64,000 bases of DNA from Escherichia phage vB_EcoM_LMP33. Positions 43,784 to 62,197 of this stretch are shown here, in pieces (position 1 is the first letter of the stretch; each line of letters opens with the position of its first letter). The stretch is taken from sequence record MK482689.1. One strand, given 5' to 3'. The notes under the pieces were generated by a model that saw nothing but the letters and a program-made list of their open reading frames with translations, ran no database searches and was not told where the DNA came from. The translations under genes were made by a program, and so were the position numbers.

Positions 43784-44172
43784 TAACGAATAACCTGTGA
43801 GACTTGAATTGCTTCAGTTACAGACAAATCACCAACTTTCTCTTCTTTGATAAAAGTGAATGTGAGTTCAACAGGCTCTTGCTCTTCTTGCTCAACTGGA
43901 ATGCCATTAAGCTCATCTCGGATTGATTGAGTTGTCCAGTCTTCTCCACCATCTGGATAATGGATGGCGTAAAGAGGAAACTCCATGTCATACCAGCCAA
44001 ATACAGGGCAACCATCTGCATCATCTCGCATTCTGCGAAGGGTGCTACCTGAGCCTGTAAAGCGAAGACTAATATTTCCATTACACTCAAAAATCACTGC
44101 GTCAGCAAGTCCAGCATCTTCTCGACCATCATGGCCAAAGGTGTCAACTTTTACTTGAATCTCTTTATTCAT
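43783..44172 (-). CDS. hypothetical protein
   Basis: 129-aa ORF. Confidence 0.35.
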   Translation of the reverse strand: MNKEIQVKVDTFGHDGREDAGLADAVIFECNGNISLRFTGSGSTLRRMRDDADGCPVFGWYDMEFPLYAIHYPDGGEDWTTQSIRDELNGIPVEQEEQEPVELTFTFIKEEKVGDLSVTEAIQVSQVIR

Positions 44173-44563
44173 AAAAACCTCTCTCTGCTTGTTCTATTTT
44201 TGCTCTTAAAGCTTCGCAATGTTGTAAATGATAGTTAGCTTCTTGTTCATGTGTTGCTAACTGCCTTTCCAGAACAGTTTTATAATAACTTGCGAGTTGC
44301 TCTTTTGTCAATGGGTGCTCTGAAATAATATCAAGTCCACTTTCACCAAGAGGGTTGAATTGTCCATGTTCGTTGACATTGTAAGTCTCAAACTTAAACA
44401 GGCCATTGTTCACAGACTCAATAGGTGACAGCTCAACAAGCTCTACAGTAAACCGTGTATATACCTTGTCACCTCTTGAAACCACATTGTTCCCGACAAT
44501 GCGTACAAGCGAGCCATTACGAGTGTACTTAAAAGTTCCAAAGTCACTAGCCCAAAGTTTCAT
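44165..44563 (-). CDS. hypothetical protein
   Basis: 132-aa ORF. Confidence 0.35.
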   Translation of the reverse strand: MKLWASDFGTFKYTRNGSLVRIVGNNVVSRGDKVYTRFTVELVELSPIESVNNGLFKFETYNVNEHGQFNPLGESGLDIISEHPLTKEQLASYYKTVLERQLATHEQEANYHLQHCEALRAKIEQAERGFYE

Positions 44564-44582
44564 AGCTTTCTCCTTAGAAAAT

Positions 44583-44604
44583 AAAAAAGGCTCCCGAAGG
44601 AGCC
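44583..44604 (-). terminator. intrinsic terminator (GGCTCC-TTCG-GGAGCC + TTTTTT on minus strand)
   Basis: Perfect hairpin with UUCG loop downstream of the lysozyme gene. Confidence 0.55.
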
Positions 44605-44614
44605 TATGAAGATA

Positions 44615-45079
44615 TTACTTTGGGTATACACTGTCAAGATAAATGTCAGCTTCCATTCTACGTCTGTTTTTCAGACCGTTTGAAGTGACCTTCTTACCTT
44701 TGACTGTAACCTTGTTCCACCACTGCATAGCTTCTGCACAACCTACCTTATTACCAGCATTGTGGCGCTTGATAAATGTGGAATCCTGCATAGCTGTGAT
44801 ACCGATGTTGTATGTTTCACTTACAAGTGCATCGAACTCATTCTGAGTAGTTGGAACCTTGATAGCTTTGTTCACTGCTGCAACAAACTTCTCAACATCC
44901 GCGAGAAGATACTGTTCAGCTTGTTCAGCAGTAATTTTCATACCCATCTTAACAGGTTTTCCGTCAATACGGATTGTCCCATACCCGATTGTTGGGATTC
45001 CGGCAGAATCTTCGTAAGCCTCTAACTCCAGACCTTCGAAGAACTTAATAGCATCTAAACCTTTTCTTGAGAGTTGCAT
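44615..45079 (-). CDS. endolysin, lysozyme (glycoside hydrolase family 24-like)
   Basis: 154 aa; N-terminus GLDAIKFFEGLELEAYEDSAGIPTIGYGT is the T4/lambda-type lysozyme catalytic region. Confidence 0.75.
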   Translation of the reverse strand: MQLSRKGLDAIKFFEGLELEAYEDSAGIPTIGYGTIRIDGKPVKMGMKITAEQAEQYLLADVEKFVAAVNKAIKVPTTQNEFDALVSETYNIGITAMQDSTFIKRHNAGNKVGCAEAMQWWNKVTVKGKKVTSNGLKNRRRMEADIYLDSVYPK

Positions 45080-46212
45080 TACGCCTCCCCTGCTGGGTTA
45101 ACTGTAACTGTTGCTGCATTGGATGTTACAGAGCCACCTGCACCAGTAACTACACAGGTGTAGCTTCCTGCATCAGCAGCGGTTGCACCTTCTTTGGTGT
45201 AAGTTGCAGTAGTTGCATCGAGGATGTCTTCCTCACCTTTCTTCCATTGGTAACCTGTCGCACCTGTTGCCACAACATTCAGCGTTAAGGTCTCACCTTC
45301 AGTGATTTCTTGATTGGTTGGCTGTTGAGTGATAACTGGTAAAGCTTTCACAGTAACGGTTGCAGGGTTAGAAGTGACAGAACCACCTGCACCTGTTACA
45401 ACGCAAGTGTATGAACCTGCATCTGCTGGCAGAGCACCAGACTTACTATAGGTTGCATCTGTAGCCGAAGGAATGTCAGAGCCATCTTTCTTCCACTGAT
45501 AACCTGTTGCACCTGTTGCAGTCACTTCCAAGTTGATGTTTCCACCCTCATTGACGGTCTGGCTAGAAGGTTGTTGTGTAATCACAGGCAGTGTGTTGAC
45601 AGTAACTGTTGCCGCATCTGAGGTAACGCTTGTCCCAGCCTCTCCAGATACAACACAAGTGTATGAACCGGCATCAGAAGGTTCTACAGACTGTTTTGTG
45701 TAGGTTGCAGATGTGGCGCTAGTGATATCCTCACCATCCTTTTTCCATTGATATCCAGTGGCATTAGTTGCAATAACGCTTAGGGTAAGTGTACCACCTT
45801 CATTTACTGTTTGATTGGTTGGTTGCTGAGTGATTGATGGTGGCTTGATAGCGCCCTTCAACTTAGCATTCAACATTGAGAATGGTTTAACTCTTGCCAG
45901 CCATTCACAATAAACTGTATCAACGTCTTTACCATTGATAATTGCATATTGTAAGTCCATGAAGAAGTCAGAAGTTCTCATTTGAGCACCAACACTGTAA
46001 AGCAACTCATCACTAAATGGAACTTTGTAGTCTGGTTTATAGTCAAACTTCTCAACTTCTGCAATATCAGCTTCAGGCCAATACGAGCTATAGGTAAGTG
46101 GTAAAATAGCCTCTTGATATGTTCTAAAATCATATCTCTTACCAGCCTTTACGTTTGCAATGAAGCCCTTCACAAACTCTTTGAAGTCTGGGTAAGTCTT
46201 TGCTTTAATCAT
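45079..46212 (-). CDS. protein with N-terminal domain plus three tandem Ig-like domains
   Basis: Three repeats of about 85 aa (ITQQP..Q.VNEGG...ATGYQWKKDG...AGSYTCVVTGAGGSVTS..ATVTV), immunoglobulin-like; N-terminal 120 aa paralogous to the adjacent 123-aa protein. Confidence 0.55.
   Translation of the reverse strand: MIKAKTYPDFKEFVKGFIANVKAGKRYDFRTYQEAILPLTYSSYWPEADIAEVEKFDYKPDYKVPFSDELLYSVGAQMRTSDFFMDLQYAIINGKDVDTVYCEWLARVKPFSMLNAKLKGAIKPPSITQQPTNQTVNEGGTLTLSVIATNATGYQWKKDGEDITSATSATYTKQSVEPSDAGSYTCVVSGEAGTSVTSDAATVTVNTLPVITQQPSSQTVNEGGNINLEVTATGATGYQWKKDGSDIPSATDATYSKSGALPADAGSYTCVVTGAGGSVTSNPATVTVKALPVITQQPTNQEITEGETLTLNVVATGATGYQWKKGEEDILDATTATYTKEGATAADAGSYTCVVTGAGGSVTSNAATVTVNPAGEA
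45100..45850. repeat. three tandem DNA repeats of about 250 bp encoding the Ig-like domains
   Basis: Nucleotide-level repetition underlying the three Ig-like units. Confidence 0.55.
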
Positions 46213-46580
46213 TTCTTTTCAGCCTCTAAATGTGCGTTTAGTCTAAAATAACCTTTGTGATTCGGAGATACATCACCAACGACAATACCTTTAACCTTAT
46301 AGCCTTTACCAATTACATACTGGATATCCATAAGGAATCTTCCAAGACCAACAATATGGAACATTGGGTATAATAGATTCTCAGAGTCTGGAATATTGAT
46401 TTCAGGTTTGTAGGTACGCTGTTCGCTTGTTGGTGTAATATCTTCTTCAGGCCATTTACTGAGTCTCCATGTCAAAGGTGTTGGGATAACATCATTAAGG
46501 TTGTACCTTTCACCATTTTGCACGGAATTGATATAGGATTGTAGGAAGCAATAAAAGTCTTTTGCACTCTTAGCTTTCAT
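46209..46580 (-). CDS. hypothetical protein, paralog of N-terminal domain of the Ig-like protein
   Basis: Shared motifs with the downstream protein N-terminus (DF..F...I..V..G.RY; Y.W.....L...E....YKP...P.S..LLY; MD(L/I)QY(A/V)I..GK.V). Confidence 0.4.
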   Translation of the reverse strand: MKAKSAKDFYCFLQSYINSVQNGERYNLNDVIPTPLTWRLSKWPEEDITPTSEQRTYKPEINIPDSENLLYPMFHIVGLGRFLMDIQYVIGKGYKVKGIVVGDVSPNHKGYFRLNAHLEAEKK

Positions 46581-46627
46581 TAAATATCCTTATAAATAGT
46601 TAAAGGGGCATAAGCCCCTATTCACAC

Positions 46628-47218
46628 TTAAGCTTTGGTCTTAAGTAGGTTCTTAAGTTTTTTAAGATTCATACTCTCATCAAACTTAAAACCAAATCCA
46701 TTGACATAATCAATGAACTCGGATTTCTTACTGAGTGACAATGCGTAACTCATATCAAAGTTCTTACTTGTTTCTGCGTCTGGACTAGAGTTCACATCAA
46801 ATGAAATTTCCGTAGGCTCTTGCTTACTTTTTCTCATATTATCAACCAACAAACATGTATAGTTTGCTGGATAGAAATTTACACTACCATCAACGTAGCT
46901 GTACTTATTATTATGGATAAGGTTGGAAAATACCTTAAGGAATGTTTCTGAGTCGTGGCAAACAAGTTTGAATTGGCTGCTCTCTCCAAGCGCAACTAAT
47001 GAATACGGACTTTCACTATCAAAGTCATAATTTGGATTCGATGCCGTTACTGTTACACGCATCAAGTTATTAGCAATAGTCTTCTGTTTAAAAGAATTTT
47101 GAACATAGTGAAGACCTCTACCACACTGATTGACTAGCTCTTTAAGTAGGTCATTTGCATATGGTGAATTAATTGATACAGAGCCATCACTATTGTAATT
47201 AAAACTTACTGTTAACAT
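46628..47218 (-). CDS. hypothetical protein
   Basis: 196-aa ORF. Confidence 0.4.
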   Translation of the reverse strand: MLTVSFNYNSDGSVSINSPYANDLLKELVNQCGRGLHYVQNSFKQKTIANNLMRVTVTASNPNYDFDSESPYSLVALGESSQFKLVCHDSETFLKVFSNLIHNNKYSYVDGSVNFYPANYTCLLVDNMRKSKQEPTEISFDVNSSPDAETSKNFDMSYALSLSKKSEFIDYVNGFGFKFDESMNLKKLKNLLKTKA

Positions 47219-47445
47219 TTTTCAGTTCTCCTGCGATTTATAATTTTGCTGCAATAGAGAAACGAAGTAAACTCACTGGAAGAAACCATTAAGTGTTGTT
47301 CACTAGATTGAGCCATTGCCCTGAAATACATTCCAGTCAAAGCATCGTAGTGACTATTCTTTCCAATTGAGGTTATATAGCCATGACTCTTTGCAGTTTT
47401 ATATAAATCTATAATATCTGCGATTTCTAATTGGGAACTACACAT
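47212..47445 (-). CDS. hypothetical protein
   Basis: 77-aa ORF. Confidence 0.3.
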   Translation of the reverse strand: MCSSQLEIADIIDLYKTAKSHGYITSIGKNSHYDALTGMYFRAMAQSSEQHLMVSSSEFTSFLYCSKIINRRRTEKC

Positions 47446-47609
47446 AGATAATCCTCTTGTCTTCTGTAATTTTGAAAGAACAGGTACAGACCAATTTCAG
47501 AGGATGAATAGTAGAGTAACTCTACCCTTTTTGATTCCTTACAGTGATTGGTATTTTTACCTTTCTTCGGGTTGTTTGATTTTCTCATTAAGTCTCCTTT
47601 GTAGAACAA
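47427..47609 (-). CDS. hypothetical small basic protein
   Basis: 60-aa ORF, first gene of minus-strand cluster. Confidence 0.3.
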   Translation of the reverse strand: MFYKGDLMRKSNNPKKGKNTNHCKESKRVELLYYSSSEIGLYLFFQNYRRQEDYLCVVPN

Positions 47610-47686
47610 GGCAGACCTACAGCTTAAGTAAGATGGTACAGTAATCCATACAACAAGTCAAGAACTATTGCAAGTTAAAAAAGTTG

Positions 47687-47710
47687 TTGACAAAGTACTT
47701 GACAAGGTGT
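47687..47710. promoter_or_regulatory. conserved 24-bp dual-TTGACA motif (TTGACAAAGTACTTGACAAGGTGT), copy 2
   Basis: In the divergent intergenic region between the minus-strand cluster start and 47837; 23/24 identity with copy 1. Confidence 0.5.
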
Positions 47711-47836
47711 AGGCTTATAAATACTTAGAAGATAACTTAAAAGGTTCCTCTAAAAAGGCTATTTAAACAGATATCTTTCTGGATATCTATCTTTTATCTT
47801 AAAAGCCTTTTAAGAGGTCTTATAAGAGGCATACCA

Positions 47837-54036: not shown

Positions 54037-54771
54037 ATGAAAGAGATGACAGAACAAGGTAAGGAGATTTTTAATCTCTTAAAAACCGGTAAAGGGTTTT
54101 CTAACCCACTTATTACTGGTGCAGCAGTTCTCGGTGGAACCGTAGCTGCCTCTACATCACTTGTAAGCTCTATTAGCTCTGTAACAGACCCTACAATGAA
54201 GGAGAAACTTGTTGCTGCTGGACTTACAACAGTCCTTCTAAACAGCTTTACAACAAGCCTTACAAGCACTACAGCAACTACTAAAACTCTGACAGACTAC
54301 GGTCAAAAGTCTATTGATGAGTTTTCATCACGTATGCAGGTAGCAAAGGGGTATTCCAATGTTATGGGTGCAGCAGGAGAACAAGTTGGTTGTACACCAT
54401 TCAGTGGTATCATGGGTGTTGCTACAGAGTATGGTCAAAAAGCTATTGACATGATGAACAGTACACTAGATAGTGTTAATGGTGTGTTAAGTGACTTACA
54501 AGATGCTATTGATAAGGGTCTTGATACTGTTTCTGATTTAGCTAATCAGGCTGTTAGTAAGATTAATGAAGGTATTTCAAAGATTACAGCTTATGCAGAT
54601 GAAGTTGTGCAGATGATTGAAGAAGAAGCTTCCCTTATTGCAGAGTACCTTAAAACGAATATCAATGGGTTCTTAGCAGGTATCTTACCAGACTGGTTTG
54701 ATGATGCCTGTAAAACTGGTGTGATTGACACTATTGCAACACCAGAAATGAAGAGCGCATTACAGAAATAA
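54037..54771 (+). CDS. hypothetical Ser/Thr-rich protein
   Basis: Start placed at ATG 54037 (MKEMTEQG..., after AAAGG) because the track start at 53974 overlaps tRNA-Phe; about 244 aa. Confidence 0.4.
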   Translation: MKEMTEQGKEIFNLLKTGKGFSNPLITGAAVLGGTVAASTSLVSSISSVTDPTMKEKLVAAGLTTVLLNSFTTSLTSTTATTKTLTDYGQKSIDEFSSRMQVAKGYSNVMGAAGEQVGCTPFSGIMGVATEYGQKAIDMMNSTLDSVNGVLSDLQDAIDKGLDTVSDLANQAVSKINEGISKITAYADEVVQMIEEEASLIAEYLKTNINGFLAGILPDWFDDACKTGVIDTIATPEMKSALQK

Positions 54772-54773
54772 AT

Positions 54774-54866
54774 GGAAGATTAACCCTAAAAGGTAAGGGA
54801 GCAGTTTGCTAAACTGCCAGTAGCTGAGAAATCGGTGTACCAGTTCAAGTCTGGTATCTTCCTCCA
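54774..54866 (+). tRNA. tRNA-Ser (anticodon GCU), long variable arm
   Basis: Acceptor GGAAGAT/ATCTTCC, anticodon arm GCAGT-TTGCTAA-ACTGC, long variable arm, T-arm ACCAG-TTCAAGT-CTGGT, CCA. Confidence 0.6.
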
Positions 54867-54870
54867 ATTT

Positions 54871-54946
54871 GAATCCGTGACAGAAATGGCTATGTGCCTG
54901 TCTGCAAAACAGGTTTATAAGGGTTCGAGTCCCTTCGGATTCTCCA
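54871..54946 (+). tRNA. tRNA-Cys (anticodon GCA)
   Basis: Acceptor GAATCCG/CGGATTC, anticodon arm CCTGT-CTGCAAA-ACAGG, T-arm AAGGG-TTCGAGT-CCCTT, CCA. Confidence 0.65.
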
Positions 54947-55375: not shown

Positions 55376-56992
55376 TTGCGGAGGTGCTTAATGGACTTAA
55401 ATGCTGTTAAGCAGAAGCGAGTGGAAGATGTTAGGAAAGTCCTAGCTGGAGAGTTGGGGCTTTCTGATGAAGTAAAAGAAATTATCAAATCATTCGGTAA
55501 AGACCCCTCTAAATTCCTTCCAACTCAAATTCTGACTTTATTAAGATACACACCAGACCAAGTTAGACTTATCTTCAAATTGATGACTGATAAGAACTAT
55601 GTAGCCCCTCAGCCGGGTTCTCAAGAGGTCTTTTTAAATACTAATGCTGACTTGGTTCTCTATGGTGGTGCTGCGGGTGCTGGTAAGACTGCTGCATTGT
55701 TAATGGACTCTTTAAGGTTTATTGACGACCCTAATTATAACGCTGTATATTTCCGTCGAAATACAACACAGTTACAAGGTGGTTTGTGGCCTGCTGCAAA
55801 GAAACTATTTGGTAAGTTTGGTGGGGTTCCTCACGAGCAGAAGATGACTATCACATTCCCTTCTGGGGCAACTATCAAGTTTACCTATCTAGAACTTGAA
55901 AAGCACGCTGAAGGTCATCAGGGTATTGAATACTCAGCTATTTACTTTGACGAAGGTACACACTTCTCTGCTTCACAGATTTCATACCTACAAACCCGTC
56001 TACGTTCTGGTGCTGAAGGTGATTCATACATGAAGATTTCCATGAACCCAGACAGAGACCACTTTATTTACGATTGGGTAGAGCCATTCTTAGATGAAGA
56101 AGGCTATCCAGACCCTGAAAAATGTGGTCGTATTCGTTGGTATGTAATGAACGATGGTGTGATGGTTTCTGATTGGGAGAGAGACAAGATTCTTGAAATG
56201 TTCCCTCTTGAGATTCCTCAAACATACACCTTTATCTCTGGTACGATTGATGATAACCCAATCCTTGACTTCTTAGAGCCTAAGTACCGTGGTAAGTTGG
56301 AAAACAACACCCCTGTAAACGTTGCAAGACTTCGTTTCGGTAACTGGAAGGCTCGTGCAGAAGGTTCAAACTATTGGCAAAGGCAATGGTGTGAGATTGT
56401 TGATTCACTCCCAGAAGATGTATTTGATGTTAGAGCATGGGACTTAGCAGCAACTTTACCATCTGAGATTAACCCTAATCCAGACTGGACAGCAGGTGTT
56501 AAGATGGGTAAATCTAAAAAAGACGGTTGCTATTATATCATTGATGTAGTAAGATTTAGAGATAGACCCTCTGGAGTCGAAACACAAATTAATTTGACTG
56601 CTGAAAGTGACGGTAAGCGAACTGGTATTTTTATCCCTCAAGACCCAGGCGCTGCTGGTAAATCCTACGCAACATCCCTCATCAGGAAACTTGCCGAGAA
56701 AGGTTATCGAGCAAGAGCCAAACCAACAAATAAAGATAAAGTTACCCGCTTTGCGGGATTTTCTGCTGCTTCTGAAGCTGGACTTGTAAAAGTCTTGAGA
56801 GGTAGTTGGAATGAAGCTTACTTTCAAGAACTTGAAGGTTTTTGTGGTGACGGCAAAACTAAAGATGACCAAGTGGATGCTACCAGTGATGCTTTCAACA
56901 GTCTTAACGAAGTTAAATTATTCAAGCCACCATCAATGGGTGCTCACACAGACTTAGTGAGAGGAAACCCATATGAGGGGCTTAGACGTTGA
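55376..56992 (+). CDS. terminase large subunit
   Basis: Walker A LVLYGGAAGAGKTAALL; Walker B-like AIYFDEGTH; C-terminal nuclease-like acidic motifs; size and position before portal. Confidence 0.8.
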   Translation: MRRCLMDLNAVKQKRVEDVRKVLAGELGLSDEVKEIIKSFGKDPSKFLPTQILTLLRYTPDQVRLIFKLMTDKNYVAPQPGSQEVFLNTNADLVLYGGAAGAGKTAALLMDSLRFIDDPNYNAVYFRRNTTQLQGGLWPAAKKLFGKFGGVPHEQKMTITFPSGATIKFTYLELEKHAEGHQGIEYSAIYFDEGTHFSASQISYLQTRLRSGAEGDSYMKISMNPDRDHFIYDWVEPFLDEEGYPDPEKCGRIRWYVMNDGVMVSDWERDKILEMFPLEIPQTYTFISGTIDDNPILDFLEPKYRGKLENNTPVNVARLRFGNWKARAEGSNYWQRQWCEIVDSLPEDVFDVRAWDLAATLPSEINPNPDWTAGVKMGKSKKDGCYYIIDVVRFRDRPSGVETQINLTAESDGKRTGIFIPQDPGAAGKSYATSLIRKLAEKGYRARAKPTNKDKVTRFAGFSAASEAGLVKVLRGSWNEAYFQELEGFCGDGKTKDDQVDATSDAFNSLNEVKLFKPPSMGAHTDLVRGNPYEGLRR

Positions 56993-61087: not shown

Positions 61088-62197
61088 ATGTTGACTAATT
61101 CTGAAAAAAGCAGATTTTTCCTTGCTGACCTGACTGGTGAAGTCCAGTCTATCCCAAATACTTATGGGTATATTTCCAACTTAGGTCTGTTCCGTTCAGC
61201 ACCAATTACCCAAACTACTTTCCTTATGGACTTGACTGATTGGGATGTTAGTTTGCTTGATGCGGTAGACCGTGATAGCCGTAAAGCAGAGACTAGCGCA
61301 CCTGAGCGTGTTCGTCAAATCAGCTTCCCAATGATGTACTTCAAAGAAGTTGAAAGCATTACTCCTGATGAGATTCAGGGTGTACGTCAGCCAGGCACTG
61401 CAAACGAACTGACTACTGAAGCTGTAGTACGTGCTAAGAAGCTGATGAAGATTCGTACCAAGTTCGATATTACTCGTGAGTTCTTGTTTATGCAAGCTCT
61501 GAAGGGTAAAGTTGTTGATGCTCGTGGTACTCTGTATGCTGACCTGTACAAGCAGTTCGACGTTGAGAAGAAGACTGTTTACTTCGACCTTGACAACCCT
61601 AATGCTGACATTGACGCTTCTATTGAAGAACTGCGTATGCACATGGAAGACGAAGCTAAGACTGGCACTGTAATCAACGGTGAAGAAATTCACGTAGTTG
61701 TTGACCGTGTATTCTTCAGCAAACTGACCAAGCATCCTAAGATTCGTGACGCTTATCTTGCACAGCAGACTCCACTGGCTTGGCAACAGATTACTGGTTC
61801 TCTGAGAACTGGTGGTACTGACGGCGTTCAGGCTCATATGAACACCTTCTACTACGGTGGTGTTAAGTTTGTCCAGTACAACGGTAAGTTCAAAGACAAG
61901 CGTGGTAAAGTTCACACTCTGGTTAGCATTGATGGTGTTACTCAGGATGGAACTGTAGGTGTAGGACATGCTTTCCCTAACGTTTCTATGCTGGGTGAAG
62001 CAAACAACATCTTCGAAGTGGCATATGGCCCATGTCCTAAGATGGGTTATGCGAATACACTTGGTCAGGAACTATACGTATTCGAATACGAAAAAGACCG
62101 TGACGAAGGTATCGACTTTGAAGCTCACTCTTACATGCTGCCATACTGTACTCGTCCTCAGTTGCTGGTAGATGTTCGTTCTGACGCTAAAGACTAA
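61088..62197 (+). CDS. major capsid protein
   Basis: 369-aa ORF after protease/scaffold and decoration gene; strong RBS; canonical head-module order. Confidence 0.6.
   Translation: MLTNSEKSRFFLADLTGEVQSIPNTYGYISNLGLFRSAPITQTTFLMDLTDWDVSLLDAVDRDSRKAETSAPERVRQISFPMMYFKEVESITPDEIQGVRQPGTANELTTEAVVRAKKLMKIRTKFDITREFLFMQALKGKVVDARGTLYADLYKQFDVEKKTVYFDLDNPNADIDASIEELRMHMEDEAKTGTVINGEEIHVVVDRVFFSKLTKHPKIRDAYLAQQTPLAWQQITGSLRTGGTDGVQAHMNTFYYGGVKFVQYNGKFKDKRGKVHTLVSIDGVTQDGTVGVGHAFPNVSMLGEANNIFEVAYGPCPKMGYANTLGQELYVFEYEKDRDEGIDFEAHSYMLPYCTRPQLLVDVRSDAKD

Follow-up and report, generated by a model that had tools for sequence, protein, structure and literature searches.

The decoration protein of Felix O1-type phages has been described and solved as Hex-Dec of Bas63 (JohannRWettstein; 9NCF, chain S) and as gp20 of Sf14 (9C2D and 9C3A, chain S). 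Its capsid-binding domain (CapBD) consists of the N-terminal ~118-120 amino acid residues, arranged in two pseudo-symmetric lobes, and is followed by Ig-like domains, which are flexible and unresolved in the Bas63 and Sf14 maps and number from 1 to 4 per protein across the genus (PMC12609058, PMC11821841). Each edge (pentamer-proximal) hexamer of the T=9 head, 60 in all, is plugged in its middle by one monomer, and the facet-centre hexamers are empty. In Sf14 gp20, Arg79 and Arg107 are salt-bridged to capsid protein residue Asp221, and the decoration gene is located more than 10 kb away from the structural module (PMC12609058, PMC11821841). Sf14 gp20 was found by mass spectrometry, and the Bas63 and Sf14 homologues were both seen by cryo-EM (PMC12609058, PMC11821841). 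The Felix O1 homologue, gp36, was detected in purified virions at 44% coverage.

The DNA analysed here (the window) is a stretch of 64,000 nucleotides from Escherichia phage vB_EcoM_LMP33 (MK482689.1), a member of Felixounavirus. At the locus described here, Escherichia phages vB_EcoM_LMP34 and LMP25 share 100% identity with it, and wV8 and many other Felixounavirus genomes 94-97%. A first-pass annotation of the sequence had pointed out a protein with three Ig-like repeats, a separate gene for a copy of its N-terminal domain immediately upstream, and an adjacent endolysin gene. The open reading frames and their coordinates were confirmed, as was the neighbouring lysozyme gene. The features of the locus, together with the gene for the predicted binding partner, are as follows.

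44578..44605, minus strand: predicted intrinsic terminator behind the endolysin gene, a 7-pair stem followed by TTTTTATTTT (terminator scan; wV8 annotation)
44615..45079, minus strand: endolysin of the T4-type lysozyme family, 154 aa (PF00959, E 4.5e-41)
Junction of the two genes, minus strand: TAATG overlap of the Hex-Dec stop codon and the endolysin ATG (sequence)
45079..46212, minus strand: Hex-Dec, 377 aa, predicted Hoc-like decoration protein of the head, at hexamer centres (9NCF_S, 9C2D_S, phrog_3995)
45082..45852, minus strand: three Ig-like (I-set/Ig_3) domains, Hex-Dec residues ~121-377 (Pfam, repeat identities)
45853..46212, minus strand: predicted CapBD, Hex-Dec residues 1-120, with Arg79 and Arg107 (sequence)
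46209..46212, minus strand: ATGA overlap of the paralog stop and the Hex-Dec start (sequence)
46209..46580, minus strand: stand-alone CapBD paralog, 123 aa, phrog_4463, without Ig domains (homology to CapBD)
46590..46612, minus strand: GC-rich hairpin, GGGGCTTATGCCCC then TTT, just upstream of the paralog (sequence)
61088..62197, plus strand: major capsid protein, predicted binding partner of Hex-Dec, Asp221 present (9ncf_A, 9c2d_A)

Our main reading, to which we assign a probability of about 0.9, is that the 377-aa protein is Hex-Dec, and that the 123-aa protein is an old, Ig-less CapBD paralog, which would be no stable component of the virion but a dispensable late accessory protein.

The 377-aa protein could be aligned from residue 1 over its full length with 9NCF_S (E 4.8e-299) and with 9C2D_S (E 1e-167), and it matches phrog_3995 with an E value of 3e-208. 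Both Arg79 and Arg107 are present, and these two residues are invariant across 23 distinct CapBD sequences. The major capsid protein of the window matches 9ncf_A (E 2e-244) and 9c2d_A (E 4e-234), being near-identical to that of Bas63 with few mismatches, and Asp221 is kept in the alignment (KIRD(221)AYL). With full-length matches to both solved proteins, the two arginines, the capsid aspartate, a number of Ig domains within the range of 1-4 and the adjacent endolysin, the locus thus carries all sequence-level features of the family. As judged from these comparisons, the 377-aa protein is assigned to the Hex-Dec/Sf14 gp20 type of decoration protein. Since its N-terminal 120 residues correspond to the capsid-binding domain, the protein is predicted to sit on the head. 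Each of the 60 edge hexamers on the T=9 head would hold a single monomer in its middle, anchored by salt bridges from Arg79 and Arg107 to Asp221 of three capsid subunits, and the flexible string of three Ig domains would point outward from the capsid. By analogy with T4 Hoc, the Ig-like domains probably mediate weak adhesion or aggregation. Weak adhesion had been suggested in the first-pass annotation, and the same role has been proposed, on the same analogy, for the homologues in the Bas63 and Sf14 papers (PMC12609058, PMC11821841). Of the checks that the annotation had listed, the search for the larger protein in virions is answered through its homologues by the proteomic and cryo-EM data described above.

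Most GenBank records call this protein a tail protein, in line with the label 'tail' of phrog_3995 and with the occurrence of Ig domains on major tail proteins elsewhere among phages. The label, however, derives only from similarity in the Ig domains, the homologues are located at capsid hexamer centres by cryo-EM, and the Bas63 paper explicitly calls the tail annotation wrong (PMC12609058, PMC11821841). For these homologues a tail identity is refuted by the 9NCF and 9C2D structures, and for the window protein we give it practically no credence. The Hex-Dec identity corrects a label still found on many GenBank records.

The first-pass annotation had also placed the gene outside the structural module, in agreement with the gene map. 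The genes for terminase, portal, protease and major capsid protein start at 55376, 57000, 59319 and 61088, on the strand opposite to Hex-Dec, and a cluster of 25 tRNA genes lies between the Hex-Dec region and this module. Both this location and the variation in Ig number (1-4) are already published.

The Ig-like nature of the region following CapBD was supported by Pfam, with three stretches matching Ig_3 (E 2e-34) and a match to I-set (E 1.4e-26), so that the repeats are genuine domains and not low-complexity sequence, which had been one part of the refuting condition named in the annotation. Their description as three near-identical repeats held for the number but not for the similarity: any two units of the protein are ~70% identical in protein sequence (58/83, 59/81 and 58/83) and ~70-73% identical in DNA, and each of the motifs quoted for the repeats is missing from one of the three units. 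No repeat was reported for the region by Tandem Repeats Finder, because the units are too diverged. We then divided the Ig region of each of 28 homologues into its units and compared these by position. The window units are 95%, 95% and 98% identical to units 1, 2 and 4 of a four-Ig homologue, and units at corresponding positions are orthologs, with 1-2-3-4 in the four-unit form, 1-2-4 in the window and 1-4 in the two-unit forms. An equivalent unit is 86-100% identical between Felixounavirus phages, as compared with ~70% among the units within one protein, indicating that the copy number shifts as entire old units are lost or gained. On these identities the Ig duplication is old, and the recent domain shuffling that had been proposed was not borne out, either for the Ig units or for the upstream copy of the N-terminal domain, which is 37% identical and occurs in three genera.

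The CapBD paralog, Hex-Dec and the endolysin are encoded in this order, with overlap of stop and start codons at both junctions. The order is conserved, and the overlap between paralog and Hex-Dec is 4 nt in 28 of 30 loci and 8 nt in the other two; the ATGA overlap suggests translational coupling of these two genes. The terminator at 44578..44605 is predicted to close the three-gene unit, and hairpins flank the unit on both sides. The upstream hairpin at 46590..46612 was left uncalled by a terminator consensus scan because its T-run is weak; the equivalent site is a rho-independent terminator in the wV8 and Felix O1 annotations. A scan for a late promoter upstream of the paralog detected no sigma-70-like site, and AACTATTTATA, located between the hairpin and the paralog ATG, is unenriched in the window (36 matches vs 44 expected). 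An Rfam search of 44000-48300 gave no match. Synthesis of a fused paralog/Hex-Dec protein by frameshifting was also considered and rejected, with no canonical slippery heptamer at the ATGA and no library protein containing two CapBDs. In Felix O1, the transcripts of ORFs 36 and 37 were both maximal at 60 min by RT-PCR, although this timing is coarse, the endolysin of the same unit being placed at 25 min.

The small gene upstream is known elsewhere as Felix O1 ORF37, wV8 gp42, Sf14 gp021 and SUSP1 agp126; in UniRef its product is labelled 'tail protein' as well. That the N-terminal domain is duplicated there, as the first-pass annotation had claimed, was confirmed by BLASTP (37% identity to the CapBD of Hex-Dec over 101 residues, E 9e-17), the level of identity indicating a diverged paralog and no recent copy. 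The paralog also matches residues 3-117 of 9NCF_S (E 1.2e-11), and a Pfam search gave no match. Prediction of its structure, another of the checks listed for the shared domain, was carried out with AlphaFold. The model from the single sequence was unusable (pLDDT 46), while that from a 52-sequence alignment was moderate (pLDDT 60, pTM 0.63). In a Foldseek search of the PDB with the latter model, only 9c2d_S and 9ncf_S were matched (TM 0.61-0.65), and the next match had an E value above 1. From homology and from this model, the paralog is predicted to have the CapBD fold.

Both capsid-anchoring arginines are lost in the paralog according to the alignment: the Arg79 position is occupied by Gly in all 22 distinct paralogs, and the Arg107 position by Q, H, N or K. 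Where CapBD carries Arg79, the paralogs share specific conserved residues (PMFHIVGLG.FLMDIQY), and long stretches of their sequence are invariant. The frame is intact at 30/30 loci analysed from Felixounavirus, Mooglevirus and Suspvirus, and since the paralog is common to these three genera it is older than their split. Estimates of dN/dS were 0.12 (paralog, mean dS ~0.8), 0.04 (CapBD), 0.11 (Ig unit 1) and 0.08 (endolysin). By these measures the paralog is a real, constrained gene under purifying selection. The paralog could instead be a decaying duplicate without function, as it is missing from ~19 of 252 sequenced relatives, its constraint is about 3-fold weaker than that of CapBD, and its knockdown in SUSP1 was without fitness effect (PMC11879866). 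The dN/dS ratio at this level of synonymous divergence, the intact frames in three genera, and the invariant stretches together with the conserved overlap with the Hex-Dec start codon all argue against decay, which we consider very improbable.

The domain itself is narrowly distributed. When a profile made from the paralogs and CapBDs was compared with 1.84 billion cluster representatives, only 13 proteins were matched at E <=0.001: two clusters from this phage group, the stand-alone protein P0097, a 153-aa protein with a charged tail (P0103), CapBD-Ig fusions including Erwinia phage proteins, and P0104, which was rejected as a repetitive chance hit. Word-indexed protein searches detected close relatives only. 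By these searches, the CapBD domain occurs only in this phage lineage and a small number of relatives.

For the paralog, the published data argue against a place in the virion. The Felix O1 virion protein list does not include it, and it is not among the proteins that the main text on VpaE1 names as additional to that list. Bas63 carries the paralog gene (H153), and neither density nor product has been reported for it, the central facet hexamers being empty (PMC12609058, PMC11821841). The first-pass annotation had missed that the 120-aa N-terminal domain is a capsid-binding domain and that the paralog is apparently no virion component.

One alternative is that the paralog serves as a second, Ig-less decoration protein, which fills the 20 facet-centre hexamers or some of the 60 edge sites and thereby sets the density of Ig fibres. 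In its favour, the paralog shares the CapBD fold, exactly one class of hexamers is left unoccupied by Hex-Dec, the Felix O1 transcript peaks late alongside that of Hex-Dec, and the stop codon of the paralog overlaps the Hex-Dec start. The residues conserved in the Arg79 region suggest a binding surface that is altered rather than lost. Detection might also have failed, as 20 copies per virion of a 14-kDa protein could escape shotgun proteomics with a coverage cut-off of at least 25%, and threefold averaging at the facet centres could blur a paralog monomer in cryo-EM maps. Against this assignment, the facet-centre hexamers are empty in the Bas63 map and likewise in the Sf14 map, the paralog is unreported in the Felix O1 virion proteome and in the main text on that of VpaE1, and both salt-bridge arginines are replaced. 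We therefore regard a second decoration protein as improbable; most likely, the paralog is no stable component of the virion.

Natural mutants and a knockdown screen bear on whether the paralog is needed at all. Among 252 matching phage records, ~19 are without the paralog. The deletion was examined in three of these records, REP11, Z31 and vB_CECAV_041, all of which have the same internal deletion of ~228 nt that pseudogenises the paralog and leaves the Hex-Dec gene intact; in the two sequences inspected for it, REP11 and vB_CECAV_041, the start region of the paralog is altered as well. A genome-wide dCas13d knockdown screen of SUSP1 gave scores of -0.91 for the paralog (agp126), -0.39 for Hex-Dec (agp125) and 0.82 for the endolysin (agp124), and all three genes were called 'Not Fit' (PMC11879866), the inclusion of the endolysin indicating that the screen has false negatives.

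Absence from mature virions would also be expected if the paralog were a non-virion assembly factor, either a placeholder on the hexamers of unexpanded proheads or a mask that covers CapBD until the head expands. The stop/start overlap, which suggests co-production with Hex-Dec at a fixed ratio, the late peak of the Felix O1 transcript and the purifying selection on the paralog are all consistent with such a role. On the other hand, Erwinia Kolesnikvirus has a fused decoration protein beside the endolysin without a stand-alone paralog, and the natural deletion mutants retain an intact Hex-Dec gene, indicating that assembly help by the paralog is not required; a dedicated assembly factor is rather unlikely. 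The wider proposal, that the paralog works together with the decoration system as its functional partner, acting as a blank plug or competitor that tunes the number of Ig fibres or as a transient chaperone of proheads or Hex-Dec, is possible but doubtful.

We return to the paralog as a late accessory protein that the phage can do without. The fold it has kept might act only transiently or weakly on the capsid, on proheads or on Hex-Dec, or it might have another role; with such transient or weak action the explanation is at its weakest. What is left to explain is a conserved CapBD copy without the arginines, transcribed late in Felix O1 as measured by RT-PCR and apparently off the capsid. If the paralog modulates decoration, it would help to account for the presence of Hex-Dec on only 60 of the 80 hexamers, and it would be relevant to scaffolds for phage display and vaccines that employ binders of hexamer centres. 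The two genes would then constitute a decoration module that the cryo-EM papers on Bas63 and Sf14 do not mention, as neither their text nor their supplements refer to the paralog or to a neighbouring gene (PMC12609058, PMC11821841).

Among known systems, the closest are Bas63 Hex-Dec and Sf14 gp20, to which the window protein is orthologous over its full length. The same Arg79 and Arg107 in CapBD, the same capsid Asp221, the endolysin neighbour and the upstream paralog are found in all three. The difference lies in the Ig units, of which the window protein has three (1, 2 and 4) and Bas63 four, while the three units of Sf14 gp20 are more diverged, with 59-71% identity to the Bas63-type units. 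A more distant relative is the 'tail protein' of Erwinia Kolesnikvirus (P0099; vEam_PM_6 gp008), a CapBD homologue (E 6e-10) which, like Hex-Dec, is encoded directly upstream of the endolysin. Its CapBD, in contrast, is fused to a single Ig-like domain of another type, and the locus is without a stand-alone paralog.

Like Hex-Dec, T4 Hoc binds singly at the hexamer centres, carries several Ig-like domains in a row, is dispensable in the laboratory and has a proposed role in adhesion or aggregation. The order of domains is, however, reversed, the capsid-binding domain being C-terminal in Hoc and N-terminal in Hex-Dec; the two capsid-binding domains differ in topology and have minimal sequence similarity (PMC12609058, PMC11821841). 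Hoc also occupies all hexamers of a prolate head. Membership of the window protein in the Hoc family was rejected because of the reversed order and because the PHROG 'Hoc-like' matches cover only residues 122-290 of the Ig region. [quoted passage not shown] It differs in having one Ig domain and a capsid-binding domain unrelated in sequence to CapBD, and the match of the window protein to 5LXK (E 2.8e-11), on which pb10 membership was rejected, is confined to the Ig domain (query residues 216-292).

The intact Ig-less paralog of the head decoration protein Hex-Dec is missing from about 19 of the 252 phage records. The paralog genes of REP11, Z31 and vB_CECAV_041 have all lost the same internal segment of about 228 nt. 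The start region of the gene is likewise changed in the two isolates for which the sequence was read, REP11 and vB_CECAV_041. In the deletion-bearing isolates a 192-nt paralog remnant is followed directly by Hex-Dec, the REP11 locus being located as follows.

2305-2498 of the REP11 locus (L004): deletion-bearing paralog locus

The Hex-Dec homologue of Shigella phage Z31 (L005, 2498-3070) is annotated as two short ORFs of 134 and 55 aa; the gene is either a pseudogene split by a frameshift or has been misread in sequencing. In the CRISPRi-ART screen of SUSP1, the endolysin (AVU07_agp124) was scored 'Not Fit' (0.82, p 0.14; PMC11879866, supplement file 16), and negative results for the neighbouring genes should therefore be treated with caution.

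The profile of CapBD, the N-terminal domain of Hex-Dec and the stand-alone domain of the paralog, also matched a short stretch of P0104 (E 6e-4), a 632-aa protein composed of about ten near-identical 50-aa repeats. This match is probably a chance hit to repetitive sequence.

Many GenBank records still label Hex-Dec (locus at 45079-46580 of the window) as 'tail protein', the original Felix O1 record names it 'HK97 major tail subunit', and the UniRef name for the Ig-less paralog is likewise 'Tail protein'. By the evidence of the cryo-EM papers, both labels are wrong. The record titled 'Staphylococcus phage SA1' contains this Felixounavirus locus, and its paralog shares 99% identity with the VpaE1 copy, suggesting that this entry is mislabelled or contaminated.

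The decoration and lysis unit (paralog, Hex-Dec and endolysin) is flanked in the window by the following features.

46628-47218, minus strand: gene for a 196-aa protein (phrog_4034, wV8 gp43), upstream of the unit
48290-49705, plus strand: 471-aa 'RNA-binding protein' (phrog_850; DUF2828 in the note of the Sf14 record)
49871-54946, plus strand: cluster of 25 tRNA genes

The 'RNA-binding protein' gene is transcribed divergently from the unit, and the tRNA cluster is located directly downstream from this gene. The phrog_4034 gene is conserved in Felixounavirus, Mooglevirus and Suspvirus. In Erwinia Kolesnikvirus a 206-aa gene, a possible counterpart, stands at the equivalent position.
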